Below are positions 2,822 through 26,839 of a stretch of 27,879 bases of DNA, piece after piece; position 1 is the stretch's first letter, and every line of letters starts with the position of its first letter. A model generated the notes under the pieces. It saw only the letters and a list, made by a program, of their open reading frames with translations. It had not been told where the DNA came from and made no database searches. Origin of the DNA: a virus; the UHGV virus genome UHGV-2100961; one strand, 5' to 3'. The position numbers were made by a program, and so were the translations under genes.

Positions 2822-4317
2822 TGGCGAGGGGTATCTGGGTTTCACCCGATGAATTTGTTGCTTTTTCTGAGCCTCAGAAATCACTGACCGCGCAGATTGC
2901 CTCCCGCAGCCGCGCGATCGACTTTTACGGACTGGGCATGTATCTGCCCAATCCTGATCCCATTCTCAAGGCTCAGGGACGGGATATCCGTATCTACCGC
3001 GAACTGCGCACCGACCCGCTGGTCGGGGGCTGTATCCGCAGACGTAAAGCAGCGCTCAAATCGCTGGAGCGTGGACTGGAGCGTGGTCACGCCTCTGCCC
3101 GGGTCTTCCGTTTCATCCGCGACATGCTCGACGATCTGGATCTGTCCCGCATCATCGGTGAAATGAGCGATGCCGTGCTCTACGGGTATCAGCCCTGTGA
3201 AATCATGTGGGGCCGTTCGGTCAGGTCGTGGGCGGTGACGGATATTGTCGGCAAACCGCCTGAGTGGTTTCAGTTTGATACGGACAACTGCCTGCGCTTC
3301 CGGGCGCGTGATGCGGGTGTGGAGGGTGAGCTGCTGTCACCGTCAAAATTCGTGGTGCCGGCACAGGATGCCTCGTATGACAATCCTTACGGTTTCCCGG
3401 ACCTGTCCATGTGCTTCTGGCCGGTCGCCTTCAAGAAAGGCGGGATGAAATTCTGGCTCCGCTTTGCCGAAAAGTTTGGCTCCCCGTGGGTGATCGGTAA
3501 GCACCCGAGGGGCGCAAATGATGCAGAGATTGAAAAACTGCTGGACTCCATGGAGCAGATGGTGGAGGACGCGGTGGCCGCCATCCCCGATGACAGCAGT
3601 ATTGAGCTCAGGGCAGCGGATGGCAAGGCAGACAGCAGCGAGGTATTTCGCGAGCTGATCACACTGTCACGCAGTGAGATCTCCATTGCATTACTCGGTC
3701 AGAATCAGACCACGGAAGCGAACAGTAACAAGGCCTCTGCACAGGCCGGGCTGGAGGTAACGGCTGATATCCGCGATGCGGATGCGGACATCATTCAGGC
3801 GGCAGTGAATCAGGTCATCAGAACGGTGGTCACCCTGAACTTCGGCGATGTGCCGTGTCCGGTCTGGGCCATGTGGGAACAGGAGGCCATTGATGACACC
3901 CGTGCCACCCGCGACGAAAAACTCACCCGGGCGGGTCTGCGTCTGACCCCGCAGTACTTCAAGCGTGAGTACCAACTGCAGGACGGCGATATTGACGAGA
4001 CACCACCGTCGGAACGCCAGAATAACATGCTGCCGCTGTCATTTGCCGAGGCGATTGATGCTGATATTCAGGCTCAGCAGCAGCTTGACGACGCGCTGGA
4101 CATTCTGATGAACGGAGGCGCGTTAAATGGCACGCTGGAACCCGTCCTGGCACCTCTGTTCAGGCGGGTCGAAAATGGGGTTAACCCGTCTGAGCTGCTG
4201 GGCGAACTGGCGGAGCTCTACCCTCAGATGAACACGGACGATCTGCAGGAGCGGCTGGCCCGCATTCTCTTTGTGACAAATATCTGGGGGCGTCTGCATG
4301 AGCGTGACAACGGCTGA
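2821..4317 (+). CDS. Portal protein (Mu gp29-like)
   Basis: 498-aa ORF following the terminase with TGATG overlap; acidic C-terminal region; size and position typical of Mu-like portal. Confidence 0.85.
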   Translation: MARGIWVSPDEFVAFSEPQKSLTAQIASRSRAIDFYGLGMYLPNPDPILKAQGRDIRIYRELRTDPLVGGCIRRRKAALKSLERGLERGHASARVFRFIRDMLDDLDLSRIIGEMSDAVLYGYQPCEIMWGRSVRSWAVTDIVGKPPEWFQFDTDNCLRFRARDAGVEGELLSPSKFVVPAQDASYDNPYGFPDLSMCFWPVAFKKGGMKFWLRFAEKFGSPWVIGKHPRGANDAEIEKLLDSMEQMVEDAVAAIPDDSSIELRAADGKADSSEVFRELITLSRSEISIALLGQNQTTEANSNKASAQAGLEVTADIRDADADIIQAAVNQVIRTVVTLNFGDVPCPVWAMWEQEAIDDTRATRDEKLTRAGLRLTPQYFKREYQLQDGDIDETPPSERQNNMLPLSFAEAIDADIQAQQQLDDALDILMNGGALNGTLEPVLAPLFRRVENGVNPSELLGELAELYPQMNTDDLQERLARILFVTNIWGRLHERDNG

Positions 4318-9138: not shown

Positions 9139-9389
9139 TGAAAGAATACCGCTATTCCGGCCCGGCCAGCGGCGTCACGCTGTCGGACGGAACCGAAATC
9201 CTGCTCTGGCCGGGGAAGACGGTTTCCCTGCCGGAGGAGCATGACTACGTGAAGGTACTGGTGGCGCTGAAGCATCTGACGCCGGTACCAGAAGATACTA
9301 AACCCGCCGTCACACCGGCTGTGCAGTCACCAAAGCGCAGAAGCAGCAGTGACAGCGAAGTGAAAACGGAGGACGCCCATGGCAGCTAA
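9135..9389 (+). CDS. Mu gp38-like small protein
   Basis: 84-aa ORF overlapping both neighbours (GTGATG, ATGG); immediately precedes the sheath gene. Confidence 0.6.
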   Translation: MMKEYRYSGPASGVTLSDGTEILLWPGKTVSLPEEHDYVKVLVALKHLTPVPEDTKPAVTPAVQSPKRRSSSDSEVKTEDAHGS

Positions 9390-10806
9390 CTATCTGCATG
9401 GTCCCGAAACCATTGAGGTGGAAAACGGTGCCCGCCCGGTTAAAACGGTGAAATCTGCCGTTATTGGCCTGATTGGTACCGCCCCGATGGGGGATGTCAA
9501 TACGCTGGTACAGTGCCTGTCTGAGAAAGACGCAGCGGCATTTGGCAGCCAGTTCACCGGCTTTACCATTCCGCAGGCGCTGGATGCGATTTATGACCAT
9601 GGTGCAGGTATCGTTCTGGTCATTAACGTCCTCGACCCGGCGAAACATAAAACGGCGATCGAGGATGAGGTGGTTACCTTTGACAAATCGACAGGGCAGG
9701 CCAGACTGGCGCATCCGGTTGTCGCTAATGTGGTGGTGAAAAACAGTGAAGGCAGCACCACCCACACGGCGAACACGGACTACCGTGTTGATGCGCAGGC
9801 GGGTGTGCTCACGAACCTGGGCAAGGCTATTGAGGCCGGTGGCAGCGTGAAGGTGAGCTATGAGTACGCGGACCCGTCGAAGGTGACTGCGGCGGACATC
9901 ATCGGCGGGGTGAACAGCGCCGGAAACCGAACCGGCATGAAGCTGCTTAACGACAGCTTCAACCTGTACGGCTATTTCGCCAAAATTCTGATTGCGCCGG
10001 TGTTCTGCACCCAGAAGAGTGTCGCAGTTGAGCTTATCGCCATGGCAGAGAAGCTGGGCGCGGTAACCTACATTGATGCGCCTGTCGGTACCACCTTTGC
10101 ACAGGCTCTGGCAGGTCGTGGCCCGGAAGGCACCATCAACTTCAATACCAGCTCCGACCGCGTCCGTCTGTGCTATCCGCATGTGAAGGTATATGACCCG
10201 GTGACAAACACAGAGCGTCTGGAGCCGCTCAGCCAGCGTGCAGCAGGTCTGCGTGCCAGAGTCGATCTGGACAAGGGCTACTGGTGGTCATCCTCCAATC
10301 AGGAGATTCTGGGGATCACTGGCGTGGAGCGCCAGCTGTCCGCGATGATTGATGACCCGCAGAGTGAGGTGAACCTGCTTAACGAACAGGGGATCACCAC
10401 GGTATTCAGCAGTTACGGCAGCGGCCTTCGTCTGTGGGGTAACCGGACGGCAGCATGGCCAACGGTCACCCATATGCGTAACTTTGAGAACGTTCGCCGC
10501 ACCGGTGATGTGATCAACGAGTCCATTCGTTATTTCAGCCAGCAGTACATCGACATGCCGATTACTCAGGCGCTGATTGATGCACTGACGGAGTCGGTCA
10601 ACGCCTACGGTCGCAAAATGACTGGTGATGGTGCGGTACTGGGCTTCCGTTGCTGGTTTGATCCGGCCCGCAATCCGGAGACGGAGCTGGCCGCCGGGCA
10701 CCTGTTGCTGAGCTACAAATATACGCCACCACCGCCGCTGGAGCGACTGACGTTTGAGACTGAGATCACCTCGGAATACCTGTTAACCCTGAAAGGGGGC
10801 AACTGA
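9379..10806 (+). CDS. Contractile tail sheath protein (Mu L-like)
   Basis: 475-aa ORF followed directly by the tube gene (stop/start overlap TGATG). Confidence 0.85.
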   Translation: MAANYLHGPETIEVENGARPVKTVKSAVIGLIGTAPMGDVNTLVQCLSEKDAAAFGSQFTGFTIPQALDAIYDHGAGIVLVINVLDPAKHKTAIEDEVVTFDKSTGQARLAHPVVANVVVKNSEGSTTHTANTDYRVDAQAGVLTNLGKAIEAGGSVKVSYEYADPSKVTAADIIGGVNSAGNRTGMKLLNDSFNLYGYFAKILIAPVFCTQKSVAVELIAMAEKLGAVTYIDAPVGTTFAQALAGRGPEGTINFNTSSDRVRLCYPHVKVYDPVTNTERLEPLSQRAAGLRARVDLDKGYWWSSSNQEILGITGVERQLSAMIDDPQSEVNLLNEQGITTVFSSYGSGLRLWGNRTAAWPTVTHMRNFENVRRTGDVINESIRYFSQQYIDMPITQALIDALTESVNAYGRKMTGDGAVLGFRCWFDPARNPETELAAGHLLLSYKYTPPPPLERLTFETEITSEYLLTLKGGN

Positions 10807-11327
10807 TGTCAAAGATTGAGATAAACCGCATCACGAATGCCAACATCTATCTGGATGGTACTAACCTGCTGGGACGGGCTGAGGAAGTTAAACTCCCCGA
10901 TGTCTCCATGATTATGCAGGAACACAAGGCGCTGGGGATGGTGGGTAAGGTGGAACTCCCGGCTGGTTTTGACAAACTGGAAGGCGAAATCAAATGGAAC
11001 AGCTTTTACCGCGATGCGATGCTGTCTGCAGCGAACCCGTACAGGTCGCTGGCACTGCAGTGTCGTTCCAGCGTCCAGCGCTACAGCTCGCAGGGGCTGA
11101 TTGACGAAATCCCGCTGGTCACCTTCCTGACGATTATGTTCAAGAAGAACCCGCTGGGGACGTTCAAACAGCACGAGAACGCCGAGTTCTCCAGTAGCTT
11201 CACCTGCACGTATATCAGACAGGTACTGGATGGTGAAGAGCTGCTGCAACTGGACTATCTGGCCAACATCTTCCGGGTCGGCGGTGTTGATCAACTGACT
11301 GACTACCGTATCAATATCGGGGGCTGA
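10806..11327 (+). CDS. Tail tube protein (Mu M-like)
   Basis: 173-aa ORF directly downstream of the sheath gene. Confidence 0.8.
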   Translation: MSKIEINRITNANIYLDGTNLLGRAEEVKLPDVSMIMQEHKALGMVGKVELPAGFDKLEGEIKWNSFYRDAMLSAANPYRSLALQCRSSVQRYSSQGLIDEIPLVTFLTIMFKKNPLGTFKQHENAEFSSSFTCTYIRQVLDGEELLQLDYLANIFRVGGVDQLTDYRINIGG

Positions 11328-11708: not shown

Positions 11709-12044
11709 ATGTCACAGACCCCATCCGATACTTTTAAATTGTCTTATCCCTTCACCACTGCTGCAGGCACCAGAATTGAGCTGGTTGAACTGAAACGCCT
11801 GACGGTAAAAGACCTGAAGCAGGTGCGCAAAATCAGCAAAAACCCGGCAGACTGGGACGAACCGCTGATTGCCCGCAGTACTGGTCTTCTCCCGGAAGAT
11901 CTCGACAATATGGATCTGGCTGATTACCTGCAGTTACAGAAACGATTTCAGCTCATCACGGGGATGGGTGAGAGCAACCAGGGCGCTGACGCAGGCGCAG
12001 GGGCTGCTGGCGAGATGGTTCCGGTTTCAGCCGGGGGAGATTGA
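11709..12044 (+). CDS. Tail assembly chaperone (Mu gp41-like)
   Basis: 111-aa acidic ORF with RBS CAGGAG, located between tube and tape-measure genes; ends in a G-rich run (CCGGGGGAG) with an overlapping ORF in the +1 frame. Confidence 0.7.
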   Translation: MSQTPSDTFKLSYPFTTAAGTRIELVELKRLTVKDLKQVRKISKNPADWDEPLIARSTGLLPEDLDNMDLADYLQLQKRFQLITGMGESNQGADAGAGAAGEMVPVSAGGD

Positions 12045-12126
12045 TGCCCTCGATACTGACGATCTGGAGATGTGGCTGGAGCAGGCTGAAGAGCAAATAA
12101 AAAGCGAGTACGGCGACAAATCATAG
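12031..12126 (+). CDS. Candidate frameshift extension of the tail assembly chaperone (+1/-2 frame)
   Basis: ORF 11869..12126 is open in the +1 frame across the chaperone stop; a shift at GGG-GGA (12033-12038) would append about 29 aa (..EIDALDTDDLEMWLEQAEEQIKSEYGDKS). Confidence 0.3.
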   Translation, partial: PGEIDALDTDDLEMWLEQAEEQIKSEYGDKS

Positions 12127-12201: not shown

Positions 12202-15153
12202 ATGTCGGGACAGTTTTCAGTCGGCGTTGTTATCGGCGGGATGATTGGCAGCACATTCCGTTCTGCAATGAGCGGTACCCGCCGTGCGCTTGATTCCCTG
12301 AGCGATACCTCACGCCGCCTGCAGGAACGTCAGAACGCTTTAACCCGTGCAACAGAACGTTATGGTCAACTGGGTTCTTCCCGGATGCAGCATCTCAACA
12401 GCGAGCTGCTGCGGGTAAGCCGCACCATGGAGCAAATTGAGCGCCAGCAGCGCCGTCTGTCAGCGGCATCCGCTACCAGTGATGCGCTGAAAGCTAACCG
12501 CATGGCGCTGTATGGTCAGGGGATTGAAGCGTATGGCATGGCACAGACTGTTTATCATACGGTTTCCCCTGCCGTTCAGCAGTCCATGTCTTTTCAGGAC
12601 AAAATGATTGATATGTCGATCACCGCAAAATATGACAATAAAACGCGGGATGCACTTGCCGGACAGATAAAAGGCTGGGCGCTTAAATACAATCAGTATC
12701 AGGATGAGCTGCAGGAGGCGGTGGGTTCACTCATCAGCGACAATATTGATAATGTGTCAGATATCGGTTTTCTGATGCCGGATATTGCCCGCGCGGCAAC
12801 GGCAACACGCACGTCTGCTCAGGACTGGGCAAAAGTGGCCGCAGTCTGGCAAAACTCCCTGAAAGGTGCGGCCAGAGATTTTGGTGCCGTTCAGAATATT
12901 ATGGCTTATGCCGGTGACCAGGGGTCATTTGAAATCCCGGATCAGGTCAAGTGGATGCAGTCCCTGGCCCCAATGATGGCGGGTATTGCCAGTGGAAAAG
13001 AGGCTGTTGCTGAAATCGGGGCCAGTCTCCAGATAGCAAAAATCGGTGCAGGTTCCACCGACGAAGCAGCTAATAATTTTAAAAACTTTCTTACCAAAAT
13101 TTTTGCCCGCGATACTCAGAAACAGTTTGCTGATCTGGGTATTGATTTGCAGGGATCTATTGCGAGTTATAAAGCTGCGGGGATCTCTCCGATTGAAGGG
13201 ATGTTGAGTGTTATAGAACGTTACCTCAATGCCAAAAGCCCCGAAGCGCTGGCCGGCTTCAAATCAGCCATGAAAATAAAGAATGATACGGCAAGAGATG
13301 AGGCACTTCAGGCTCTGGCGAAAAACTTTGGTCTGGGCGATATGTTCGCGGATATGCAGGTCATGGCATTTATCCGCCCGATGCTGGCCAACATGGACAG
13401 ATATCGAGAGATCCGTGCCGGTGCTCTCAGGGCTGCGGATAACGATTTGCTTGCCAGTGCTTATGATCAGCGGCTGAAATCTCCCCTTGAAGCCACTAAA
13501 ACACTTATGGTCAGCAGTCGCGATCTGGCAATTACGCTGGGCGATCAATTAGCTCCATCTTTTATTTCTTTGACTCAGGAACTGCTTCCACTCATTCAGG
13601 GGGCAAAACACTGGGTAGCGACTCACCCGCAATTTGTCAGTGGGGCTTTTAAGCTCATCAGTGCGCTCCTTGCGATTAAGATAGCGACTGTTGGTCTCAA
13701 ACTGGGGCTGAATCTCCTTATTTCCCCCTTTGTAAGTGTCTGGAAAAATGCTGTTTTACTTCGGGCCAACTGGCTTCGTCTGTCGCTCGCACTGGGGCAA
13801 GGCGGTAAGCTCCGCTGGCTGGTGACCGGATTTAGCGCCGTCGCCAGAGGAGCCAGAACACTGAGTGGCGTGCTCTCCGGGGGGCTGGTTCGCGGAATTA
13901 TGCTCGCCGGACGTGCTGTTCTCTGGATTGGACGTGCGCTGATGATGAATCCCATCGGTCTCGTTATCACCGCTGTCGCGGCAGCAGCTTACCTTATCTA
14001 CCGCAACTGGGGGGCAGTCAGTGGCTGGTTTAAACAGCGCTGGGCAGACATTCAGGAAGCCTTTAACGGCGGCATTGTGGGAATTGGTAAGTTACTGATT
14101 AACTGGTCGCCGGCAGGCCTGCTCTATAAAGCCTTTGCGGCTGCGCTGAAATATTTCGGCGTTGCTCTGCCGGCAAAGTTCACCGACTTCGGTGGCCATC
14201 TTATCGACGGTCTGATTAACGGTATCAAAAACAAATGGGGGTCGCTCAAATCCAGTGTAACCGGAATGGGTGACAGCATCAGTAGCTGGTTTAAACAGTG
14301 CTGGGCTGACATTCAGGAAGCCTTTAACGGCGGTATCGCGGGAACTGGTAAGCTGCTGATTAACTGGTCGCCGGCAGGTCTGCTCTATAAAGCCTTTGCA
14401 GCTGCGCTGAAATATCTTGGTGTTGATCTGCCGGCAAAGTTCACCGACTTCGGTGGCCATCTTGTCGACGGTCTGATTAACGGTATCAAAAACAAATGGG
14501 AGTCGCTCAAATCCAGTGTAACCGGAATGGGTGACAGCATCAGTGGCTGGTTCAGCGAAAAGCTGGGCATTCATTCGCCGAGCCGCGTGTTTATGGGCTT
14601 TGGTGACAATATCGCGCAGGGGGCCGCCATTGGCCTGCAGCGGACCACTCCGCTTGCAGCTCTGGCCGGGCAGCGAATGGCCAGTGAACTGCTCCCCAGA
14701 ATGCCCGTGAGCATTCAGGGGCCAGAAATACGGGATAACACTTCAGGTGTTCGCTTCAGTATGCCGTTGCCCGATATCAATGGGTTTATGTCGTCTGCTA
14801 AAAATGCGATCGGAGCCGTAATCAATAGTTTGTCTTCCATGCCCGCTATCCCGCTCTCCACCCGGGCATCGATTTTACCAGGGCAACGTCTGGCAAATGA
14901 GATGACACCGGATGTTCCCCGTATCCCCTCGCCTGAAATCATGGCTGCCGGATATTCAGGCCGTGGTGCAGCTGCAACCGGCGGTGGAACGTCTGGTGGT
15001 ATCCAGGTCAGCTTTAATCCTCAGTTTTTCCTCAATGGCAGGGAAACCACAGCGCCTGCAGGACTGACTGGTGCCCTGAATATGAGTCTGCATGAGCTGG
15101 AAAAAATGCTGGAGCGTCTGCTGGCTCAGAAACAACGTAAGGAGTACCGCTGA
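12202..15153 (+). CDS. Tail tape measure protein
   Basis: 983-aa ORF after the chaperone; coiled-coil N-terminus, hydrophobic Gly-rich central segments, internal tandem duplication. Confidence 0.85.
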   Translation: MSGQFSVGVVIGGMIGSTFRSAMSGTRRALDSLSDTSRRLQERQNALTRATERYGQLGSSRMQHLNSELLRVSRTMEQIERQQRRLSAASATSDALKANRMALYGQGIEAYGMAQTVYHTVSPAVQQSMSFQDKMIDMSITAKYDNKTRDALAGQIKGWALKYNQYQDELQEAVGSLISDNIDNVSDIGFLMPDIARAATATRTSAQDWAKVAAVWQNSLKGAARDFGAVQNIMAYAGDQGSFEIPDQVKWMQSLAPMMAGIASGKEAVAEIGASLQIAKIGAGSTDEAANNFKNFLTKIFARDTQKQFADLGIDLQGSIASYKAAGISPIEGMLSVIERYLNAKSPEALAGFKSAMKIKNDTARDEALQALAKNFGLGDMFADMQVMAFIRPMLANMDRYREIRAGALRAADNDLLASAYDQRLKSPLEATKTLMVSSRDLAITLGDQLAPSFISLTQELLPLIQGAKHWVATHPQFVSGAFKLISALLAIKIATVGLKLGLNLLISPFVSVWKNAVLLRANWLRLSLALGQGGKLRWLVTGFSAVARGARTLSGVLSGGLVRGIMLAGRAVLWIGRALMMNPIGLVITAVAAAAYLIYRNWGAVSGWFKQRWADIQEAFNGGIVGIGKLLINWSPAGLLYKAFAAALKYFGVALPAKFTDFGGHLIDGLINGIKNKWGSLKSSVTGMGDSISSWFKQCWADIQEAFNGGIAGTGKLLINWSPAGLLYKAFAAALKYLGVDLPAKFTDFGGHLVDGLINGIKNKWESLKSSVTGMGDSISGWFSEKLGIHSPSRVFMGFGDNIAQGAAIGLQRTTPLAALAGQRMASELLPRMPVSIQGPEIRDNTSGVRFSMPLPDINGFMSSAKNAIGAVINSLSSMPAIPLSTRASILPGQRLANEMTPDVPRIPSPEIMAAGYSGRGAAATGGGTSGGIQVSFNPQFFLNGRETTAPAGLTGALNMSLHELEKMLERLLAQKQRKEYR
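14026..14547 (+). repeat. In-frame tandem duplication inside the tape-measure gene (2 x 261 bp, 87 aa each)
   Basis: Anchor TGGTTTAAACAG at 14026 and 14287 (period 261); encoded units WFKQRWADIQEAFNGGIVGIGKLLINWSPAGLLYKAF.. and WFKQCWADIQEAFNGGIAGTGKLLINWSPAGLLYKAF.. are near-identical; a third partial start (GWFSEK) at 14548. Confidence 0.85.
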
Positions 15154-16037
15154 TGTTTGCCGTACTGGGTGATATTGAGTTTGAGCTGATTACCTACTGG
15201 GACGGCTTCGAGGCCACGTTCGGCGTCGATTATGCGGAGCATGCCCGCATCGGGGGTAAGCCTGGCCTGCAGTTCGTCGGCGACAGGCTGGACGAAATCC
15301 AGATAACTCTGGTTTTCCATCAGCATTATTGTGTACCCGATGTGGAGCTGGCGAGACTGCGAACAGCCATGAAAGCCCATCAGGCACTGGCGCTGGTCTT
15401 CGGCAACGGTGACTATCGCGGCTGGTTCGTGATTACCGATGTGACTGCAACCAGCGAGCAGACTGACAGTACCGGCAACGTGCTGGCTGTCAGTGCCACC
15501 GTGTCTCTCCGGGAATACACCGGTGACCCGAAAAATCCTCTGCAACCACCGGCAATACGCACGAAGCTCCCGGGTGTCGGGGCGGTCTCCGGTGCCATTC
15601 CTTCGCCTTCAGGGGTGGCGCAGTTCATCCGCAACGGCGTCAACTATGCGAAACAGGCGCAGTCTGTACTCCAGACCACTATCAGCGCCGTTCGGGTGAC
15701 ACAGAAAATGAAGGATAACCCCGTTGTCGCACTGACCCGTGTGCCGGGGCTGATGAGCGGACTGGGTAATATCTCCGGGGCTCTGGGGAAAAGTGTTCCG
15801 GCGTTTAACGCACTCTCTGAATCCATGCCCGATGCCATCAGTCTGGCCAGAACAGCCAGCGAAGCAGCCACGTATGTACAGCAGGCACAGTCTGCGCTGA
15901 GTGGTGTGGACAAAAGAAATATTGCAGGTGCTCTGGATACCGTTTCCGGGCAGCTTAACGCCGCCGGAACAGCATTCAACCGCATGTCTCCGGGATTAAG
16001 TGCAATGGCCGCCAGAATACTGACGAGGAGTGTGTGA
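15153..16037 (+). CDS. Mu N-like protein (DNA circularisation protein family)
   Basis: 294-aa ORF starting at the tape-measure stop (TGATG overlap); position between tape measure and baseplate hub. Confidence 0.7.
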   Translation: MFAVLGDIEFELITYWDGFEATFGVDYAEHARIGGKPGLQFVGDRLDEIQITLVFHQHYCVPDVELARLRTAMKAHQALALVFGNGDYRGWFVITDVTATSEQTDSTGNVLAVSATVSLREYTGDPKNPLQPPAIRTKLPGVGAVSGAIPSPSGVAQFIRNGVNYAKQAQSVLQTTISAVRVTQKMKDNPVVALTRVPGLMSGLGNISGALGKSVPAFNALSESMPDAISLARTASEAATYVQQAQSALSGVDKRNIAGALDTVSGQLNAAGTAFNRMSPGLSAMAARILTRSV

Positions 16038-18386: not shown

Positions 18387-19480
18387 CAGAACCCGATTTT
18401 ATTGAACGCGATGCCGACAAAATCACGGCAGAAATGATTGCGAAGTATGAAGCGGATACCGGCAAAACGCTGTACCCGGCACAGGCAGAACGTCTGCTGA
18501 TTGATCTGTGGGCCTATCGCGAAATGCTGGTCAGGGTTGCGGTACAGGAGGCAGCAAAGCAGAATCTGGTCGCCTTTGCCCGTGAGCCGATGATTGATTA
18601 CCTCGGTGAACTGGTTGGTGTATACCGTCTTGCCGCGCAGCCTGCCACCACCACGCTCCAGTTCTCCGTAGATGAGGCACTGGCCATTGATGTGCTGATC
18701 CCGGCAGGCACCCGCGTCAGCGCTTCCGACAGCGTTATTTTTGCCACCGATACAGATGTGGTACTGAAGGCCGGATTGCTGCTGGTCAATGTCACGTCCA
18801 CCTGTACCGAACCCGGTACCGCTGGTAACGGCTGGCAACCTGCGCAGGTCAGTCAGTTACTCGATGAGATTGATAACGTCGACCTGCTGGTGAGCAATCT
18901 GACGGCCAGTTCCGGCGGTTCAGAACAGGAAGACGATGACAGGCTCCGGGAGCGTATCAGGCTGGCCCCGGAGTCATTCACCAATGCCGGAAGCCGTGGC
19001 GCATACCGCTTTCATGCCATGCAGGCCCATCCCAACATTGTCGATGTTGCTGTGCTTTCCCCGGTTCCCGGGACCGTAGATCTGTATCCGCTGCTCAGTA
19101 CCGGTCTGCCGGACGGCGGTGTTCTCACGCTGGTAGAGAGTTTCTGCTCTGATGAGAAAGTCAGGCCACTCACTGATACAGTGCGGGCTAAAACACCAGT
19201 GAAGGTGGATTACACCATTGAAGCCAGGATTACGATCTATCGTGATCAGGATGCCAGGTCTGTAAAAGATGCCGCTAACAGCGCCATACAGAACTGGGTG
19301 GCATCACGTGCCGCCACGCTGGGGCGCGATATTGTCCCCAGCCAGATTATCAGTGCATTGTCCGTTTCCGGGGTGTACCAGGTTGAACTGGTGACACCGG
19401 CACTGCGGGTGGTGGCAGAAAACGAATGGGCAAACTGTACGGCAATCACTCTTAACATGACTGGAGTGTCTGATGACTGA
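18377..19480 (+). CDS. Baseplate J-like protein
   Basis: 367-aa ORF overlapping the W-like stop; followed by the gp48-like gene and then the tail fibre. Confidence 0.75.
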   Translation: MALTEPDFIERDADKITAEMIAKYEADTGKTLYPAQAERLLIDLWAYREMLVRVAVQEAAKQNLVAFAREPMIDYLGELVGVYRLAAQPATTTLQFSVDEALAIDVLIPAGTRVSASDSVIFATDTDVVLKAGLLLVNVTSTCTEPGTAGNGWQPAQVSQLLDEIDNVDLLVSNLTASSGGSEQEDDDRLRERIRLAPESFTNAGSRGAYRFHAMQAHPNIVDVAVLSPVPGTVDLYPLLSTGLPDGGVLTLVESFCSDEKVRPLTDTVRAKTPVKVDYTIEARITIYRDQDARSVKDAANSAIQNWVASRAATLGRDIVPSQIISALSVSGVYQVELVTPALRVVAENEWANCTAITLNMTGVSDD

Positions 19481-20051
19481 GCCATTACAACTCCCGCCAC
19501 CGCTTGAGGGTGATATCAGTCTCAGGACGCTGGGAAGACTGGCAGGACGGCTGGATAACATCGACCTGAGCGTACTGATGGTCTTTCTCGTCGATATCGT
19601 CGACAGTTCCGCGCTGCCATGGCTGGGCGAGCAGTTCTCACTGTCTGGCGATGGCTGGGAGCTGGCGGAATCGGACGATGTTCGCCGCATGCTTATAAAA
19701 GCAGCCATCGAACTGCACCGGTATAAAGGGACGCCGTGGTCAATCCGGGAAGTTATCCGCCGTTTTGGCTTTGGTGAAGTGGATCTGATTGAAGGCACAG
19801 GTCGTCTCAGTTACGACGGCAATCGCAGCTATAACGGACTGTTTGTTCATGGAGATGCAGCCGCCTGGGCAGTTTATCGCGTTATTCTGAAACAGCCCAT
19901 TACTAACGATCAGGCCGCGATGCTGCGTCAGACGCTGGCTGCATTTGCACCGGCCCGCTGCCATCTGGCCAGCCTGGAGTATCAGTCTGTGGCCATTCGC
20001 TATAACAATACTGCCATCCATGATGGCAGTTATAACCACGGGAGCAGTTGA
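19473..20051 (+). CDS. Baseplate/tail protein (Mu gp48-like, P2 gpI-like)
   Basis: 192-aa ORF overlapping the J-like 3' end; immediately upstream of the tail fibre. Confidence 0.7.
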   Translation: MTEPLQLPPPLEGDISLRTLGRLAGRLDNIDLSVLMVFLVDIVDSSALPWLGEQFSLSGDGWELAESDDVRRMLIKAAIELHRYKGTPWSIREVIRRFGFGEVDLIEGTGRLSYDGNRSYNGLFVHGDAAAWAVYRVILKQPITNDQAAMLRQTLAAFAPARCHLASLEYQSVAIRYNNTAIHDGSYNHGSS

Positions 20052-20053
20052 TT

Positions 20054-21349
20054 ATGGGAAACCTGAATGAAACAGAAAAGTGGGAAGAAAATATCTATCA
20101 ACTGGAGACATCAGATCCGGTTCTGGGTGGTGCAGACGGGATATCAAATCGAGCCCCCCGGCAACTGGCAAACAGGACGAAATGGCTGAAGAAAAAAACG
20201 GAGGAAGCCGCACAGTCACTGGCTGAACACGTACGTTCCCGTAACCACCCGGACGCGACACTGACAGCTAAGGGGTTCACCCAACTGAGCAGTGCCACCA
20301 ACAGCACCTCTGAAACGCTGGCCGCCACACCAAAAGCCGTCAAGGCTGCATACGACCTTGCAGCCGGCAAGGCGCCCGTCAGCCACACTCACCCGTGGAG
20401 TCAGATAACGGGAGTGCCTGCGGCTTCACTGACGGCAAAAGGCACCGTACAACTGAGCAGCGCCACGGACAGTCAATCAGAAACTGAGGCTGCCACGCCG
20501 AAGGCGGTCAAGGCTGCATACGACCTTGCAGCCGGCAAGGCGCCCGTCAGCCACACTCACCCGTGGAGTCAGATAACGGGAGTGCCTGCTGCCTCGCTGA
20601 CGGCAAAAGGCACCGTACAATTGAGCAGTGCCATCAACAGCACGTCTGAAATACTGGCCGCCACACCGAAAGCGGTCAAGGCTGCATACGATCTGGCAAA
20701 CGGAAAACAACCGGCAGATGCCACGCTCACTGCTCTGGCAGGACTTGCCACTGCAGCAGATCGGTTGCCTTATTTTACCGGAGCAGACCGCGCAGCGCTG
20801 GCAACCCTTACAGCTATTGGTCGCGCTATTATCGCTAAGGGCAGTATAAAAGATGTCCTCAATTACCTTGGTTTGGGGGAAGGCTCTGCATTGCCTGTTG
20901 GTGTACCGGTTCCATGGCCCACCGCCACACCGCCAGCAGGCTGGTTACAGTGCAACGGAGCTACGTTCACCAAAGAACAATATCCTGTTCTGGCCAGAGT
21001 CTACCCGACCCTCCGTCTTCCCGATTTGCGCGGTGAGTTTATCCGTGGATGGGATGACGGACGAAAGATTGACACCGGGCGTGCCCTGCTAAGCAGCCAG
21101 AGCGGAATGATTGAGAAACACCGTCATATTGTTGTTGCCAATGATGGTTACGACACAAAAGATGAATGGGAACTGGCTGCGATTTTCAAAAAAACATACA
21201 CACAAGGACGAGGACTTGATGCCACAAATACAGGAGGGAGTCTGACCCCATCACCAACACTTCATTCGCGAGGGAGTATCGGTAATACTGGCGGGAGGGA
21301 AACCCGTCCACGAAATATTGCCTTTAACTACATTGTCAGGGCGGCCTAA
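20054..21349 (+). CDS. Tail fibre protein (constant N-terminus, repeat shaft, C-terminal tip cassette 1)
   Basis: ATG 20054 (RBS GGGAG); three 56-aa shaft repeats; C-terminal region has the LPDLRGEFIRGWDDGRK motif and ends ..RPRNIAFNYIVRAA. Confidence 0.85.
   Translation: MGNLNETEKWEENIYQLETSDPVLGGADGISNRAPRQLANRTKWLKKKTEEAAQSLAEHVRSRNHPDATLTAKGFTQLSSATNSTSETLAATPKAVKAAYDLAAGKAPVSHTHPWSQITGVPAASLTAKGTVQLSSATDSQSETEAATPKAVKAAYDLAAGKAPVSHTHPWSQITGVPAASLTAKGTVQLSSAINSTSEILAATPKAVKAAYDLANGKQPADATLTALAGLATAADRLPYFTGADRAALATLTAIGRAIIAKGSIKDVLNYLGLGEGSALPVGVPVPWPTATPPAGWLQCNGATFTKEQYPVLARVYPTLRLPDLRGEFIRGWDDGRKIDTGRALLSSQSGMIEKHRHIVVANDGYDTKDEWELAAIFKKTYTQGRGLDATNTGGSLTPSPTLHSRGSIGNTGGRETRPRNIAFNYIVRAA
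20261..20700 (+). repeat. 168-bp (56-aa) in-frame tandem repeats in the tail-fibre shaft, about 2.6 copies
   Basis: Anchor CAAGGCTGCATACGA at 20341, 20509 and 20677 (period 168); encoded units LTAKG.. QLSSA.. AATPKAVKAAYDLAAGKAPVSHTHPWSQITGVPAAS. Confidence 0.85.
20868..20947 (+). repeat. Direct repeat copy A (80 bp, identical to 21353..21432) at the constant/variable junction of the fibre gene
   Basis: TTGGTTTGGGGGAAGGCTCTGCATTGCC..CAGGCTGGTTA read identically at both positions; about 90% similarity continues for another ~120 bp. Confidence 0.85.
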
Positions 21350-21352
21350 ACG

Positions 21353-21432
21353 TTGGTTTGGGGGAAGGCTCTGCATTGCCTGTTGGTGTACCGGTTCCAT
21401 GGCCCACCGCCACACCGCCAGCAGGCTGGTTA
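21353..21432 (+). repeat. Direct repeat copy B (80 bp, identical to 20868..20947) at the 5' end of silent tip cassette 2
   Basis: Same 80-mer begins 4 nt after the fibre stop codon. Confidence 0.85.
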
Positions 21433-21870
21433 AAGTGCGACGGGCGCGCCTTTACAAAAGAACAATATCCTGTTCTGGCCAGAGCCTACCCGACCCTCCG
21501 TCTTCCTGATTTACGCGGTGAGTTTATCCGTGGATGGGACGACGGGCGCAAAGTTGATACAGGACGTAAGTTGCTGTCCGCACAAGGGGCAACGCTGTTA
21601 AGAACAGCAATGCTGGATTATTATAACCAGGACACTACGGGAACCTCGGGGATAGTCGGCATGGGATTCAACAATGAAGATTCCATTACAGACCTTCGTG
21701 AGGGCAGCTTTAAAATGCCGGACGGGACAACATTCAGCGATCCTGTCATAGTAATGTCAGACAATGGTATGCAGGCTACTATTCTGACCTCTATCAGAAG
21801 CGGGTATGCGAAGGGTATCACTGTCAGACCCCGTAGCATTGCACTTAATTACATTGTGAGGGCAGTTTAA
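21353..21870 (+). other. Silent alternative tail-fibre C-terminal tip cassette 2 (no ATG or RBS of its own)
   Basis: Open frame encoding GEGSALPVGVPVPWPTATPPAGWLKCDGRAF..LPDLRGEFIRGWDDGRKVDTGR..RPRSIALNYIVRAV, paralogous to residues ~275-432 of the fibre; only a TTG codon at 21358, no SD. Confidence 0.7.
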
Positions 21871-22484
21871 TGAGTAACACTGCAGTTCTGGATGAAAACG
21901 GTATCGCCACTGTAGCGGGCGATATCACTGTATATCACTATGACGAGGAAACCCGGGAATACACCTCATCCTCTGTGGAGTATCTCGCCCTTGGGGTGGG
22001 TACTCCGGCACATTCGTGCGCCGATGCACCGCCGGAGGCAATTTCGGGTTACGTGGTTTGTCGGACTGCCACGCTGAACGGGTGGGAGCATGTGCCTGAT
22101 CACCGCGGCGAGACGGTATACAGCACGGAGAACGGTAACCCCGTTCTGATTACCCAACCGGGTGATTACCCGGCGGACACCACCACAAAACAGCCAGCCA
22201 CGCCATGGGATACCTGGAACGGTGAGGCGTGGGTAACCGATACTGAACGGCAGCGAGCCGCAGAACTGGAGGTTGCCAGACAGCAACGCCAGCAACGGGT
22301 GAAACAGGCGATGGCGTCCGTCGATCTTATCAACCTCAAACTGCGTGCTGGTCGCAGTCTGAAACCAGAAGAAACGGCAAAACTGAACGCCGTGCTGGAT
22401 TATATCGACGAGCTGAACGCACTGGATATCAGCAAGGCACCTGAAATCAGCTGGCCGGAAGCGCCACTGGCACTTGCCAGTTGA
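21870..22484 (+). CDS. Tail fibre assembly protein (Tfa/U-like chaperone)
   Basis: 204-aa ORF; ATG overlaps the cassette-2 stop (TAATG); N-terminal MSNTAVLDENGIATVAGDITVYHYDEETREY and Gln/Arg-rich helical C-terminus typical of Tfa proteins. Confidence 0.75.
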   Translation: MSNTAVLDENGIATVAGDITVYHYDEETREYTSSSVEYLALGVGTPAHSCADAPPEAISGYVVCRTATLNGWEHVPDHRGETVYSTENGNPVLITQPGDYPADTTTKQPATPWDTWNGEAWVTDTERQRAAELEVARQQRQQRVKQAMASVDLINLKLRAGRSLKPEETAKLNAVLDYIDELNALDISKAPEISWPEAPLALAS

Positions 22485-22490
22485 ACGGTA

Positions 22491-22826
22491 TCACGCCGCC
22501 CTCACGATATAGTTAAACGCGATATTGCGGGGGCGGGTTATGTTAAAGAATGCTCCGTTTAATTCGGCTTTTGCGCGACTGTTTGTTTCACCCAGCATTG
22601 CGTACCACAAATAATCGCTACGGTAATTCCCCGCAAACACCTTATCGCCGCCATAGTCAATATTATTTCCGTTACTCATGTACGAGATATCAAGCGCAGA
22701 ATCGTTATCGTCATGACCGCCGACCAGTGTACCTTTCTGCCATGAAAGCAACTTACGCCCCTCGTCAATCTTGCGCCCGTCATCCCATCCACGGATAAAC
22801 TCACCGCGCAAATCGGGAAGACGGAG
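22491..22826 (-). pseudogene. Inverted tail-fibre tip cassette 3, 5'-truncated by the IS21-family element
   Basis: Minus-strand frame encodes ..LRLPDLRGEFIRGWDDGRKIDEGRKLL..RPRNIAFNYIVRAA*; the 50 nt at 22777..22826 are the exact reverse complement of 21011..21060; homology stops at 22826/22827. Confidence 0.7.
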
Positions 22827-22891
22827 TATTAGACGTCAACTAGTTTTGCCGACTCGCGCCAACTATACTGGCCGCACCCTTCAGTGCGACA

Positions 22892-23647
22892 TCAAGTCGC
22901 GCTTGTTACTGCCTTCGCTGTCTTTTTCCTGTAGCTTTCACCTTTCAGTTCGAACATATATCCGTGATGGATCAGCCGGTCTGCCGCCGCCACCGCCATA
23001 GTCTCATCCACGAAGATGCTGCCCCACATGCTGAACGGATGGTTACTGGTTATCACCAGGCTCCCACGTTCATAGCGATGCGCTATTAACTCGAACAGTA
23101 CTCCCGTTTCGGCGCTGTCGCGTTTGACATAGCCAAGATCATCCACCACTATCACCCGGTAGCGATCCAGTTTCAGTAGCAGCTCATTCAGTTTCAACTG
23201 CGCTCTGGCTTTACGTAGTTCCTGCAACAACTCTCCTGCGCTGTAGAACCGGGCCCGGTAGCCCTGGCCTACTACGCCATCCACGATCGCTGCCGCCAGA
23301 TGGCTTTTCCCCAACCCGCTGGCTCCGAACAGCAGAACGTTTTCTCCTGCATCAACCCAGTCTGTCGTTTCACAGAGTTGCCGGAACTGAGCTCCATTCA
23401 GTTCCGGCACCTGACTGAAGTCGTATTCGCTTAGCGTTTTGGCAACTGGCAACCGGGCCTCCTTTTTATAACGACGCAGTTTTTCACTCTCGCGCCACAG
23501 GAGTTCTTCATTGCATAGCGTCAGAAGATAGCGCGATGGTGTCCAGCCTTCTGCCAGTGCTCGTTTTTCCAGAGCGTGCCATTCAGCTCCAACTCGTGTC
23601 AGGCGTAGTTTACGCAGGCTGCGTTCAAGGTGATGGATATTGCTCAC
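22892..23647 (-). CDS. istB: IS21-family ATP-binding helper protein IstB
   Basis: 251-aa ORF with Walker A (GASGLGKSH) and Walker B (VIVVDDLG) motifs and the C-terminal ..LKGESYRKK.. segment typical of IstB. Confidence 0.85.
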   Translation of the reverse strand: MSNIHHLERSLRKLRLTRVGAEWHALEKRALAEGWTPSRYLLTLCNEELLWRESEKLRRYKKEARLPVAKTLSEYDFSQVPELNGAQFRQLCETTDWVDAGENVLLFGASGLGKSHLAAAIVDGVVGQGYRARFYSAGELLQELRKARAQLKLNELLLKLDRYRVIVVDDLGYVKRDSAETGVLFELIAHRYERGSLVITSNHPFSMWGSIFVDETMAVAAADRLIHHGYMFELKGESYRKKTAKAVTSAT

Positions 23648-25143
23648 TGCGAACCGCCCTTGCCACGCAGTAGTTGCTCATAACTGCTCAGGTTATGCTG
23701 TTTCACATTGACTACCGGCAACGCCTTTTCCTTTATACCCAGGAAGCGCATCAGCCGGTGCAGATCCACGTTTCCCGGGGTATTCAGCATCTGCTCCATA
23801 CCTTTTGCCACGACTGAGATATCGTCGTATCCTGCAGCCAGTTTCAGAGCATGTACCATCAGCCTGCCTGCCATGTCGGGTTCCAGATGATTACATAAGC
23901 GACGCCACAGCCTCCGCCATTCATCGTCTGGCAGGATGTCATTTCTCAGCGTTGCATGGCAGAACGCACCGGGCTTTTTTGCCAGACTGTCGATCACATG
24001 TCGGAAGTCGATACGACGGGCCCGCGTCTTCCCTTTTTCTGGTCTGACACGTGGGCAGCTCATGACCTCGCTGCTGCCAACGTAACAGCTCAGACGATCG
24101 TCCCATAACCGGACCCGTAACAGTTGACCTACAAGCCGGGAAGGTACGCTGTAGACGACGTGCTTCACATTGATGGTACTGCTGCGGCTAACCCTCACAG
24201 TCAGCTCATCATAGTCAGCACTGCGACGAAGCGGCAGCGGTTTCAGATGAAGACGTTCTTCCTTGACCAGATCCTGATTGTTACGGTTGTGCCGCATAAC
24301 CTGCTGAGTGATGAAGGCCTGATATTCTTCTATGGTGCTGAAGTCGTTACTGCCCCGCAGTATCAGCGCCTGACAGATACGCCTTTTCAGATGTCCGTGG
24401 GCACTTTCAACCGAGCCATTTTCGTGGCCCCGACCGGCATTATTGTGTACGCCCTGCATTCCGTAGTGCTGACAGAGAGCAGCATAACGCTCAGTCAGCT
24501 CGCGGCGTCCATCTTCGCCCTGTTGTTTCCATGCTGCCCTCAGGCTGTCCGTTTTATGTTCTACCGGCACTCCGCCCAGTTGTCCGAGGGCTTCCTGCAG
24601 ACCTTCAGCCAGAGCAGAGAAGCTCTCACCACCCAGCACAACCCGCATCCAGCTCCAGTGGCTCCATTCCAGACGGAAGTGATACAACTTATGCGCCAAC
24701 AACTTACCGGCGATGGTGACAACTACACCTTTCAGTTCAGTAAAGTCCGACAGACCTCGCAGACCGGGCTGATGTCGCTGGCGGAACATGACCTCCTGCT
24801 CTGCACCATACTGTAGCTTCCATTCGCGGACCCGCCGTTGCATTGTTCTTCGAAGGCTGTTGGGGTACTGGCCGGGATATTTATCCTGTAGCATCTCCAG
24901 CAGAGTTGTTGGTGTCAGAGCCGGCCTCTCTTTCAACAGAGGAACAAGCATGCTGTCCCACACAGCTTCCAGAGGATCTTTGCGTGTGCGCCAGTGCCGA
25001 ACACTGTTTTTTGCCCACTCTCCTTTTTCGATCCGACGACCAGAACGGACTGAGATACCAGCCTTCATGGCCGAGATATGCTGAGTTATACCTTTCTTAC
25101 GCTGAGTCATATAGTAACTGACCTGAGAAGTATTGAGCGTCAC
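23644..25143 (-). CDS. istA: IS21-family transposase IstA
   Basis: 499-aa ORF immediately upstream of, and overlapping by 4 nt, an IstB-like ATPase gene; operon architecture diagnostic of IS21-family elements. Confidence 0.8.
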   Translation of the reverse strand: MTLNTSQVSYYMTQRKKGITQHISAMKAGISVRSGRRIEKGEWAKNSVRHWRTRKDPLEAVWDSMLVPLLKERPALTPTTLLEMLQDKYPGQYPNSLRRTMQRRVREWKLQYGAEQEVMFRQRHQPGLRGLSDFTELKGVVVTIAGKLLAHKLYHFRLEWSHWSWMRVVLGGESFSALAEGLQEALGQLGGVPVEHKTDSLRAAWKQQGEDGRRELTERYAALCQHYGMQGVHNNAGRGHENGSVESAHGHLKRRICQALILRGSNDFSTIEEYQAFITQQVMRHNRNNQDLVKEERLHLKPLPLRRSADYDELTVRVSRSSTINVKHVVYSVPSRLVGQLLRVRLWDDRLSCYVGSSEVMSCPRVRPEKGKTRARRIDFRHVIDSLAKKPGAFCHATLRNDILPDDEWRRLWRRLCNHLEPDMAGRLMVHALKLAAGYDDISVVAKGMEQMLNTPGNVDLHRLMRFLGIKEKALPVVNVKQHNLSSYEQLLRGKGGSQ

Positions 25144-25200
25144 GCCATTTCCTGTTGGATCATGTAAATGACACTCAGGTTACAAAACCGGCCAGAATAA

Positions 25201-26226
25201 TCGGCGCCAGGCGGACTGAGTTATTGTCGTCTCATAGTAACCGATCCCGCAGAAGCGTCCCGGCTGATTCGTCGGGGACATCTGACTTATACTCAGGCCC
25301 GTAATATCACCCGGTTCGGGACCATCGAATCGGTCACTTATGATATTGCCGAGGGTTCGGTTGTCAGTCTGGCGGCCGGAGGGATCAGTTTTGCCCTGAC
25401 GGCATCGGTCTTCTGGCTCAGCACCGGCGATCGCGATGCTGCCCTGCAGACAGCTGCTGTCCAGGCAGGAAAAACCTTCCCCCGCACACTGGCTGTCTAC
25501 GTCACAACCCAGCAACTCCACCGGCTCAGTGTTGTTCAGGGTATGCTGAAGCACATTGATTTTTCGACTGCCAGCCCGACTGTCCGACTGGCTCTTCAGA
25601 AGGGGACCGGTGCAGGAAATATCAGTGCCCTGAACAAAGTAATGAAGGGTACGCTGGTGACATCTCTGGCACTGGTAGCTGTCACAACCGGCCCTGACAT
25701 GATCAAAATGTTGCGGGGACGGATCTCCGGTGCGCAGTTCATCAGGAATCTTGCCGTGGCATCTTCCGGTGTGGCAGGTGGAGCTGTCGGGTCAGTGGCG
25801 GGCGGGATACTGTTCAGTCCACTGGGACCATTTGGTGCACTGACAGGGCGTGTGGTTGGCGGTGTTCTGGGGGGAATGATTGCCTCCGCTGTATCAGGAA
25901 AAATTGCCGGAGCGCTGGTTGAAGAAGATCGCGTCAAAATTCTGGCAATGATTCAGGAGCAGGTGACATGGCTTGCCGGCAGTTTCCTGCTGACCGGACA
26001 TGAGATTGAAAATCTGAACGAGAATCTGGCCCGTGTTATCGATCAGAATGCTCTGGAGATCATTTTCGCCGCCGGTATACAACAACGGGCCGCGACCAAT
26101 ATGTTAATCAAACCACTGGTGGTCAGTATCATCAGGCAACGCCCCGTCATGGAATATGATGCATCCCATCTCGGCAATATGGTTAACCGGCTGGAAGAAG
26201 CATTACCCCCGGAGTTACCGGCATAA
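25201..26226 (+). CDS. Glycine-zipper membrane protein ORF, probably 5'-truncated at the IS junction (alternatively a 227-aa protein from ATG 25543)
   Basis: Frame is open for 114 codons upstream of the first ATG back to the IS edge with no in-frame ATG/GTG/TTG; contains GVAGGAVGSVAGGILFSPLGPFGALTGRVVGGVLGGMIASAVSG (GxxxG repeats); no family assigned. Confidence 0.45.
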   Translation, partial: SAPGGLSYCRLIVTDPAEASRLIRRGHLTYTQARNITRFGTIESVTYDIAEGSVVSLAAGGISFALTASVFWLSTGDRDAALQTAAVQAGKTFPRTLAVYVTTQQLHRLSVVQGMLKHIDFSTASPTVRLALQKGTGAGNISALNKVMKGTLVTSLALVAVTTGPDMIKMLRGRISGAQFIRNLAVASSGVAGGAVGSVAGGILFSPLGPFGALTGRVVGGVLGGMIASAVSGKIAGALVEEDRVKILAMIQEQVTWLAGSFLLTGHEIENLNENLARVIDQNALEIIFAAGIQQRAATNMLIKPLVVSIIRQRPVMEYDASHLGNMVNRLEEALPPELPA

Positions 26227-26301
26227 CGGCTATTCTGCGCCTTTTACGCTTTATCACCTGATTTGTCAGTGTCATCGTCATGACTCAGAGAGGTAAATAC
26301 C

Positions 26302-26757
26302 ATGATTCACCTGTTCAAAACCTGCATGATTACCGCCTTCATTCTGGGGTTAACGTGGTCTGCCCCACTCCGGGCACAGGATCAACGTTACATCAGTATA
26401 CGCAATACAGATACGATATGGCTCCCGGGAAATATTTGTGCTTACCAGTTCCGGCTGGATAATGGCGGAAACGGTGAAGGATTTGGCCCCCTCACCATCA
26501 CTCTGCAACTCAAAGACAAATATGGTCAGACGCTGGTGACCAGAAAAATGGAAACGGAAGCTTTTGGTGACAGTAATGCCACGCGAACCACAGACGCATT
26601 TCTGGAAACGGAGTGCGTGGAAAATGTCGCCACAACCGAAATCATTAAAGCAACTGAAGAAAGTAACGGCCATCGTGTCAGTCTGCCGTTATCGGTTTTC
26701 AATCCCCAGGACTACCATCCACTGCTGATTACCGTTTCCGGAAAAAACGTTAACTGA
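26302..26757 (+). CDS. Small secreted/periplasmic protein of unknown function
   Basis: 151-aa ORF with RBS AGAGAGG; N-terminal signal-peptide-like sequence (MIHLFKTCMITAFILGLTWSAPLRAQDQ); followed by a strong terminator. Confidence 0.65.
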   Translation: MIHLFKTCMITAFILGLTWSAPLRAQDQRYISIRNTDTIWLPGNICAYQFRLDNGGNGEGFGPLTITLQLKDKYGQTLVTRKMETEAFGDSNATRTTDAFLETECVENVATTEIIKATEESNGHRVSLPLSVFNPQDYHPLLITVSGKNVN

Positions 26758-26781
26758 TCCCTGAAGTCAGTTTCATGCTTC

Positions 26782-26820
26782 AGCCTCTGTCACAACGCGT
26801 GGCAGAGGCTTTTTATTTAT
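26782..26820 (+). terminator. Rho-independent terminator
   Basis: AGCCTCTGTC / GGCAGAGGCT 10-bp stem with 9-nt loop, followed by TTTTTATTTAT. Confidence 0.75.
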
Positions 26821-26839
26821 CAGGAGAAAACAGATATGC

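Follow-up and report, generated by a model that had tools for sequence, protein, structure and literature searches.

That the length of the tape-measure protein sets the length of a phage tail is textbook knowledge, for which the evidence comes almost entirely from engineered siphovirus mutants. For phage lambda gpH and TP901-1, mutants that had gained or lost part of the tape-measure interior without a shift of frame had tails whose length tracked that of the protein, by about 0.15 nm for each residue (Katsura and Hendrix 1984; Pedersen 2000; Mahony 2016, PMC5099701); the authors of the TP901-1 study further suggested that repeats ease duplication and deletion (PMC5099701). Tandem tape-measure units whose number varies among related phages, with a history of duplication and loss, have been described as 11-residue W/F repeats in phages of Staphylococcus and other hosts (Belcaid, Bergeron and Poisson 2011, PMC3271669). 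Tape-measure tandem repeats and tail length following tape-measure length are established, and variation of repeat number among related phages is on record as well (PMC3271669). Here, we describe a tape-measure gene carried by the virus genome UHGV-2100961, a 27,879-nucleotide (nt) stretch of DNA referred to below as the window, in whose coordinates all positions are given. The gene, which belongs to what appears to be a BcepMu-like Escherichia coli prophage, harbors two in-frame tandem copies of a module of 87 amino acids (aa).

The locus resembles each of the described systems in part. As in the lambda and TP901-1 mutants, an internal segment of the tape measure was gained or lost in frame; those, however, are laboratory mutants of non-contractile siphoviruses, whereas the present case is a natural series of one to four units in a contractile-tail prophage, with a predicted effect on the tail. 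Like the repeats compiled by Belcaid et al., the units stand in tandem and vary in number, but the unit is 87 aa long, shows neither the 11- nor the 11-11-18 aromatic periodicity described in that study and by Siponen 2009, and occurs in one to four copies only, 91% identical to each other, with recombinant intermediates that are directly visible. With T4 gp29 and P2 gpT the protein shares the tape-measure role and the gene position within a contractile tail module, flanked by neighbors of the P2 gpE/E′, gpU, gpX and gpD types; it carries a tandem repeat, unlike what is typically reported for myovirus tape measures, and it has no sequence match to a solved structure. Coding minisatellites, such as those of bacterial surface-protein repeats, offer a parallel in their in-frame head-to-tail units, whole-unit allele steps, chimeric units at crossovers and gene conversion, but the copy number is low here and there is no sign of high-frequency switching. 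What is new is the repetition of a non-periodic 87-aa module in a myovirus-type tape measure, a class which a 2026 survey reported to be typically devoid of tandem repeats (PMC13585406), and a population series of one to four units in which reciprocal recombinants can be seen directly, carried by an E. coli prophage that is very common. Literature searches on this tape-measure repeat or on the related phage PhiKM returned no description.

Two in-frame units within the tape-measure gene

The 983-aa product of the open reading frame (ORF) at 12202-15153 was identified as a tail tape-measure protein from its matches to PF10145 (74 bits against a cut-off of 33.2, E 2e-20), TIGR01760 (58.6 bits against a cut-off of 28.8, E 5e-16) and phrog_28 (E 9e-135), and from the name "phage tail tape measure protein" given by PGAP to a gene of E. 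coli MS 21-1 with 100% identity (WP_016235488.1). Its position, with a chaperone pair that has a frameshift extension on one side and genes for the distal tail and the baseplate on the other, is that of a tape measure in a contractile tail module [Table 1].

Tandem Repeats Finder reported a single array at 14018-14552, with a period of 261, 2.0 copies, 93% matches, no indels and a score of 951. In the codon-phased register, 14026-14547 (14026 minus 12202 being divisible by 3), the array comprises 522 nt, or 2 x 87 codons, and both units lie head-to-tail within the one ORF, in frame and without a spacer. The initial annotation, which had placed tandem in-frame units inside the tape-measure gene, was thus borne out in this respect; where it had noted only a handful of nucleotide differences, we found 17 of 261 positions to differ (6.5%), nine of them as synonymous codon changes and eight as amino-acid changes (unit 1/unit 2: R/C, V/A, I/T, F/L, A/D, I/V, G/E and S/G), for an amino-acid identity of 91%. 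The gapless match of 244 of 261 positions is far above chance. Local alignments compared to shuffled controls revealed no significant sub-repeat within the unit and no extra copy elsewhere in the protein (z 0.7-1.9).

Outside the array, likeness between the copies ends sharply, with the exception of a 13-nt direct repeat found at the left edge, at the junction and at the right edge [Table 1], the consensus of the three copies being TCAGT(G/A)GCTGGTT, which codes S-G/S-W-F. Short direct repeats border the unit in single-unit alleles as well: they are perfect over 13 nt in TUM1857, while the unit edges of A31, KP12 and 21KM1392 display partial matches only, around a common GCTGGTT/CTGGTT core. 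It is possible that such short direct repeats flanking the unit (13 nt in the present lineage) were the site of the original illegitimate duplication. Within the protein, the repeat is located between the most hydrophobic part (aa about 478-600), a region that is strongly conserved between lineages, and a highly conserved segment (WFSEKLGIHSPSR...). An antisense ORF of 160 aa (14092-14574, - strand) crosses the repeat, as do shorter ones at 14124-14312 and 14385-14570; the 160-aa frame most likely reflects the duplication of sequence that lacks stops and would not represent a gene.

Table 1 Coordinates of the tape-measure repeat, its gene and selected neighboring features in the window
Feature	Position	Strand	Evidence or remarks
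Tail sheath gene	9379-10806	+	PF04984 and PF17482
Tail tube gene	10806-11327	+	PF04985
Tail assembly chaperone, P2 gpE type, with overlapping frameshift-extension ORF (gpE+E′ type)	11709-12126	+	PF10109
Tail tape-measure protein gene, 983 aa	12202-15153	+	PF10145 (aa 159-340), TIGR01760 (aa 119-493), phrog_28, PGAP on identical gene
Region shortly before the repeat, with the two hydrophobicity peaks of the protein (aa about 478-508 and 579-600)	13633-14001	+	Kyte-Doolittle 19-aa windows >1.6
13-nt direct repeat TCAGTGGCTGGTT, left edge of array	14018-14030	+	Codes S-G-W-F
Repeat unit 1 (87 aa, WFKQRWADIQ...GDSISS)	14026-14286	+	9 of 17 differences derived here relative to single-unit sister lineage
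13-nt direct repeat, junction copy	14279-14291	+	One mismatch
Repeat unit 2 (87 aa, WFKQCWADIQ...GDSISG)	14287-14547	+	7 of 17 differences derived here relative to single-unit sister lineage
13-nt direct repeat, right-edge copy	14540-14552	+	
Conserved segment WFSEKLGIHSPSRVFMGFGDNIAQGAAIGLQRTTPLAALAGQR, immediately after the repeat	14548-14685	+	Near-invariant in 821-, 896-, 983- and 1070-aa proteins
P2 gpU-type tail protein gene, immediately following the tape measure	15153-16037	+	PF06995
ISEc10 istB	22892-23647	-	
ISEc10 istA	23644-25143	-	

Copy-number alleles, their recombinant origin and their age

A megablast search of 5426 complete E. coli genomes with the tape-measure gene found it in 636, or about 12%, including sequence type 131 (ST131) strains and ABU 83972. 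The lengths of the tape measures encoded by loci fetched from these genomes step by exactly 87 aa, with the reading frame kept throughout: 896 aa with one unit (TUM1857, F1140), 983 aa with two (the window, MS 21-1, EC958), 1070 aa with three (Z0117EC0055, M-17, CU568-3) and 1157 aa with four (LH50-c). Among the best 120 clusters of a protein database, all of them from E. coli, 26 were of 896 aa, 43 of 983 aa and 17 of 1070 aa, with fragments in addition. A one-unit query was matched over at least 80% of its length in 68 genomes, about 49 of which carry lineages only 85-90% identical, and at least 80% of the two-unit gene was covered in 464 genomes. Coverage of a three-unit query was unusable as a census, joined pieces yielding at least 80% coverage in 629 of 634 genomes, and the spans of the records were used instead. 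Scored in this manner, an evenly spaced sample of 60 of the 634 carriers contained three units in 13 cases, two in 40, one in five and four in one. The shares among carriers are thereby estimated, roughly, at 10% for one unit, 70% for two and 20% for three, with four-unit alleles being rare. All sampled genomes with an EC958-like allele, many of them ST131, keep two units, and copy number within clones is apparently stable.

The 17 sites separating unit 1 from unit 2 served as markers to read the composition of the other alleles. The single unit of TUM1857 displays unit-1 states up to nt 92 and unit-2 states from nt 113 onward, and that of F1140 switches from unit 1 to unit 2 between nt 214 and 258. 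Conversely, the middle one of the three units of Z0117EC0055 has unit-2 states up to nt 58 and unit-1 states from nt 66; it is the reciprocal product to be expected of an unequal pairing, with unit 2 in one copy set against unit 1 in the other. The flanks of these three alleles differ from those of the window at only 3-9 positions in the 1824 nt to the left of the array and at 3-9 in the 606 nt to its right; since one-, two- and three-unit alleles have near-identical flanks, the changes in copy number are recent events on one backbone. The arrays of M-17 and CU568-3 consist of two near-identical first units followed by unit 2, and that of LH50-c contains two identical middle units. At the protein level, at least 11 mosaic unit-1/unit-2 patterns were counted among one-unit proteins and at least 11 among three-unit proteins. 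In EC958, the first third of unit 1 has unit-2 states, which indicates gene conversion. Unequal homologous crossing-over together with gene conversion between the copies thus probably keeps yielding one-, three- and four-unit alleles.

The polarity of the differences was established with a sister lineage of 821-aa tape measures that carry one unit and include those of Klebsiella phage KP12 and of E. coli A31 and 21KM1392. Nine of the 17 differences were derived in unit 1, seven in unit 2 and one was ambiguous, and they were spread along the whole unit. Because derived changes are distributed over both units, the pattern fits one duplication followed by divergence. Import from a diverged allele, which a clustering of the amino-acid differences near the junction of the units would have suggested, was rejected on account of the same spread of derived nucleotide changes. 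The synonymous divergence (dS) between the units is 0.168 and the nonsynonymous divergence (dN) 0.041, yielding a dN/dS ratio of 0.24, from which it follows that both copies evolved as coding sequence under constraint (purifying selection). Orthologous units of EC958 and the window differ by nine nt (unit 1) and four nt (unit 2), compared to 16-17 nt between paralogous units within an allele, and dS between EC958 and the window outside the repeat is 0.07. As paralogous divergence exceeds orthologous divergence, the duplication is older than the diversification of this prophage lineage in E. coli; it arose after the split from the 821-aa sister lineage and before that diversification.

A 71-aa segment of the 983-aa lineage (aa 829-899, window about 14686-14898) is missing from the 821-aa sister lineage. 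Its edges are formed by similar stretches of roughly 20 aa, GQRMASELLPRMPVSIQGPEI and GQRLANEMTPDVPRIPSPEI, which points to another, earlier indel, produced when short direct repeats recombined.

With regard to age and instability, the expectations of the initial annotation fared unevenly. Its view of the repeat as a substrate for expansion and contraction is strongly supported by the natural alleles of one, two, three and four units and by their chimeric units, and the comparison of tape-measure lengths among relatives that it had proposed returned the 896-, 983-, 1070- and 1157-aa forms rather than homologues all fixed for two diverged units. That the duplication is recent, on the other hand, does not hold for the duplication itself, given a dS of 0.168 between units and its presence in EC958, except relative to the wider family; it does hold for the changes in copy number, whose flanks are near-identical.

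Predicted effect on tail length and competing explanations

The tape measure of this prophage thus changes length in quanta of 87 aa. Under the ruler rule, tube and sheath would grow along the stretched-out tape measure and stop at its end, and each extra unit would add about 13 nm of tail (87 aa at about 0.15 nm per residue). The rise per ring in contractile tails is near 4 nm, and one unit would thus equal three to four tube and sheath rings. Proteins with one to four units would give rulers of about 134, 147, 160 and 174 nm. The rule of 0.15 nm per residue has been used for E. coli prophages (PMC9928086), and the relationship has been reported for lambda gpH (Katsura and Hendrix 1984) and T4 gp29 (Abuladze 1994), as cited in PMC13585406.

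We consider it likely, all parts of the explanation taken together, that the array is an in-frame duplication of an 87-aa module in a prophage tape measure, that its copy number is altered by unequal recombination and that the tail would lengthen with each unit as the ruler rule predicts. Several observations weigh against this interpretation. The patterns [FW]-x10 x7 and 11-11-18 are absent, with not even three consecutive F/W residues spaced by 11 in the protein; a Protein Data Bank sequence search with the tape-measure protein yielded no match at E up to 0.01; and a single-sequence AlphaFold2 model of aa 560-830, while helical throughout, has a mean predicted local distance difference test score (pLDDT) of 44, too low to say more than "predicted helical". 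To these may be added that the census consists of estimates from coverage thresholds and an evenly spaced sample rather than a full count, and that an IS21-family insertion sequence (IS) element, ISEc10, at about 22825-25236 (- strand), abuts the tail-fibre assembly genes of the window.

In a rival reading, the duplication and its variants would be real and yet leave the tail unchanged, the module being a folded or membrane-inserting domain, for instance part of a DNA-injection channel next to the hydrophobic segment, whose extra copies are neutral or affect infection otherwise. Such a role is favored by the position of the module right behind the strongest hydrophobic stretches, by the absence of the 11-aa aromatic spacing seen in classic ruler repeats and by the low confidence of the model. 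We nevertheless find it rather unlikely, as the weak model still predicts helices throughout, the frame is kept in all alleles with a dN/dS of 0.24, and, in TP901-1, in-frame deletions in the repeat and in the hydrophobic regions alike made the tail shorter by an amount that scaled with the deletion, and every residue lying between the terminal regions served as ruler (PMC5099701). A different doubt concerns the order of events: the single unit might be ancestral in the close E. coli lineage and the two-unit allele very recent, with the differences between units imported by recombination. The sister lineage does have one unit, and mosaicism of the tape-measure gene is plain to see at 12500-13650 and 13550-14000: aa about 100-480 are only weakly similar in the 983-aa and 821-aa lineages while the first 100 aa and the C-terminal half are near-identical, and 59 of the 83 nt differences between the window and EC958 fall within gene nt 1500-1800, the 300 nt just upstream of the repeat. 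This scenario is nonetheless very improbable, because each single unit in the close lineage begins as unit 1 and ends as unit 2, with breakpoints that vary, derived changes are found across both units, and unit-specific states are common to diverged two-unit alleles such as EC958.

More improbable still is that only the two-unit form is real and that the other copy numbers result from collapse or expansion of near-identical 261-bp repeats during assembly. Short-read assemblers do mishandle such repeats, and in the GenBank record of phage PhiKM the break that splits the tape measure into two coding sequences, marked "coding region disrupted by sequencing gap", falls precisely on the 261-bp repeat (3414-3740 of the retrieved locus L004, PQ738613.1). 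The variants, however, were found in genomes submitted as complete; their lengths always differ by an exact multiple of 261 nt, the frame is kept, and the breakpoints are clean single switches. Moreover, the one-unit chimera of H44 is 100% identical to that of TUM1857 over 561 nt, and a three-unit array is 100% identical over 983 nt in at least six sampled strains (H104-H109); the recurrence of identical alleles in independent strains makes assembly error unlikely. Going further than a duplication subject to unequal recombination, one may conceive of the one- to four-unit series as a maintained tail-length polymorphism, its quanta of about 13 nm tuned to host surface layers (capsule, O-antigen), and of the module as a conserved "extension cassette" amplified repeatedly by the tape measures of many lineages; we regard this proposal as doubtful.

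As near-isogenic tape measures that differ just in the number of 87-aa modules and serve a contractile tail, these alleles provide a natural test series for the ruler rule, which also bears on how ruler length is converted into whole tube and sheath rings. On the practical side, the repeat defeats assembly from short reads, the PhiKM record being a case in point, and inflates the apparent diversity of tape measures in clustering.

The module in other tape measures and the surrounding prophage

One 87-aa unit was searched against 1.84 billion representative proteins clustered at 50% identity, and matched 604 clusters at E up to 0.001, 323 of them at E up to 1e-10. Of the best 150 of the 604 clusters, 27 had the module in at least two near-full copies; module periods among these 150 ranged from about 50 to 114 aa, mostly 72-87 aa, and further clusters among them had extra half-modules of 42-49 aa. 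Where the arrangement was clearly tandem, copies within a protein were 34-69% identical and, in several proteins, closer to each other than to the query, which points to older, independent amplifications with different boundaries. Compared to these, the E. coli array, at 91% amino-acid identity, is the youngest amplification seen, and this part of the tape-measure protein tolerates changes in copy number. Five distant tape measures (P0122, P0123, P0152, P0184 and P0243) have three to five modules or half-modules with periods of about 42, 76 and 110 aa. Profile searches of the tape-measure protein against Pfam and NCBIfam found no model covering the 87-aa module, which occurs in hundreds of clusters and would be worth defining as a domain family of its own.

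Judged on the head and tail genes within the window, the host element appears to be a BcepMu-like prophage of E. coli that combines a head of the Mu type with a contractile tail of the P2 type. The presence of sheath and tube genes [Table 1] shows the tail to be contractile; the assignment further draws on head genes of Mu type (PF06074 Portal_Mu, DUF3486 and a Mu F-like minor head protein), on tail genes of P2 type and on the close relative Escherichia phage PhiKM (PQ738613.1), which GenBank files under Bcepmuvirus. Upstream of the tape measure, the two overlapping chaperone ORFs span 11709-12044 and 11869-12126, and a "GpE family phage tail protein" is annotated at the matching place in related loci (L002 and L007). 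Downstream follow gpU, gpX, gpD, V, W, J, I and tail-fibre genes.

Toward the right end of the window, ISEc10 cuts off an alternative fibre-assembly ORF (22491-22811) and is followed by IrmA-family and DUF905 island genes and by an IS66 transposase (26877-27860, - strand). The whole right-hand arrangement (19400-27879) was found in no complete E. coli genome of the collection, the best coverage being 49%. In MS 21-1, the same IS interrupts the baseplate J gene of the prophage copy bearing the 100% identical tape-measure gene. A second tandem repeat, at 20282-20698, lies in the tail-fibre gene 20048-21349 and has a period of 168 nt, that is, 56 aa, with 2.5 copies and 85% matches; it corresponds to the Pfam "phage tail fibre repeat" PF03406, present in three stretches and followed by a Collar domain.

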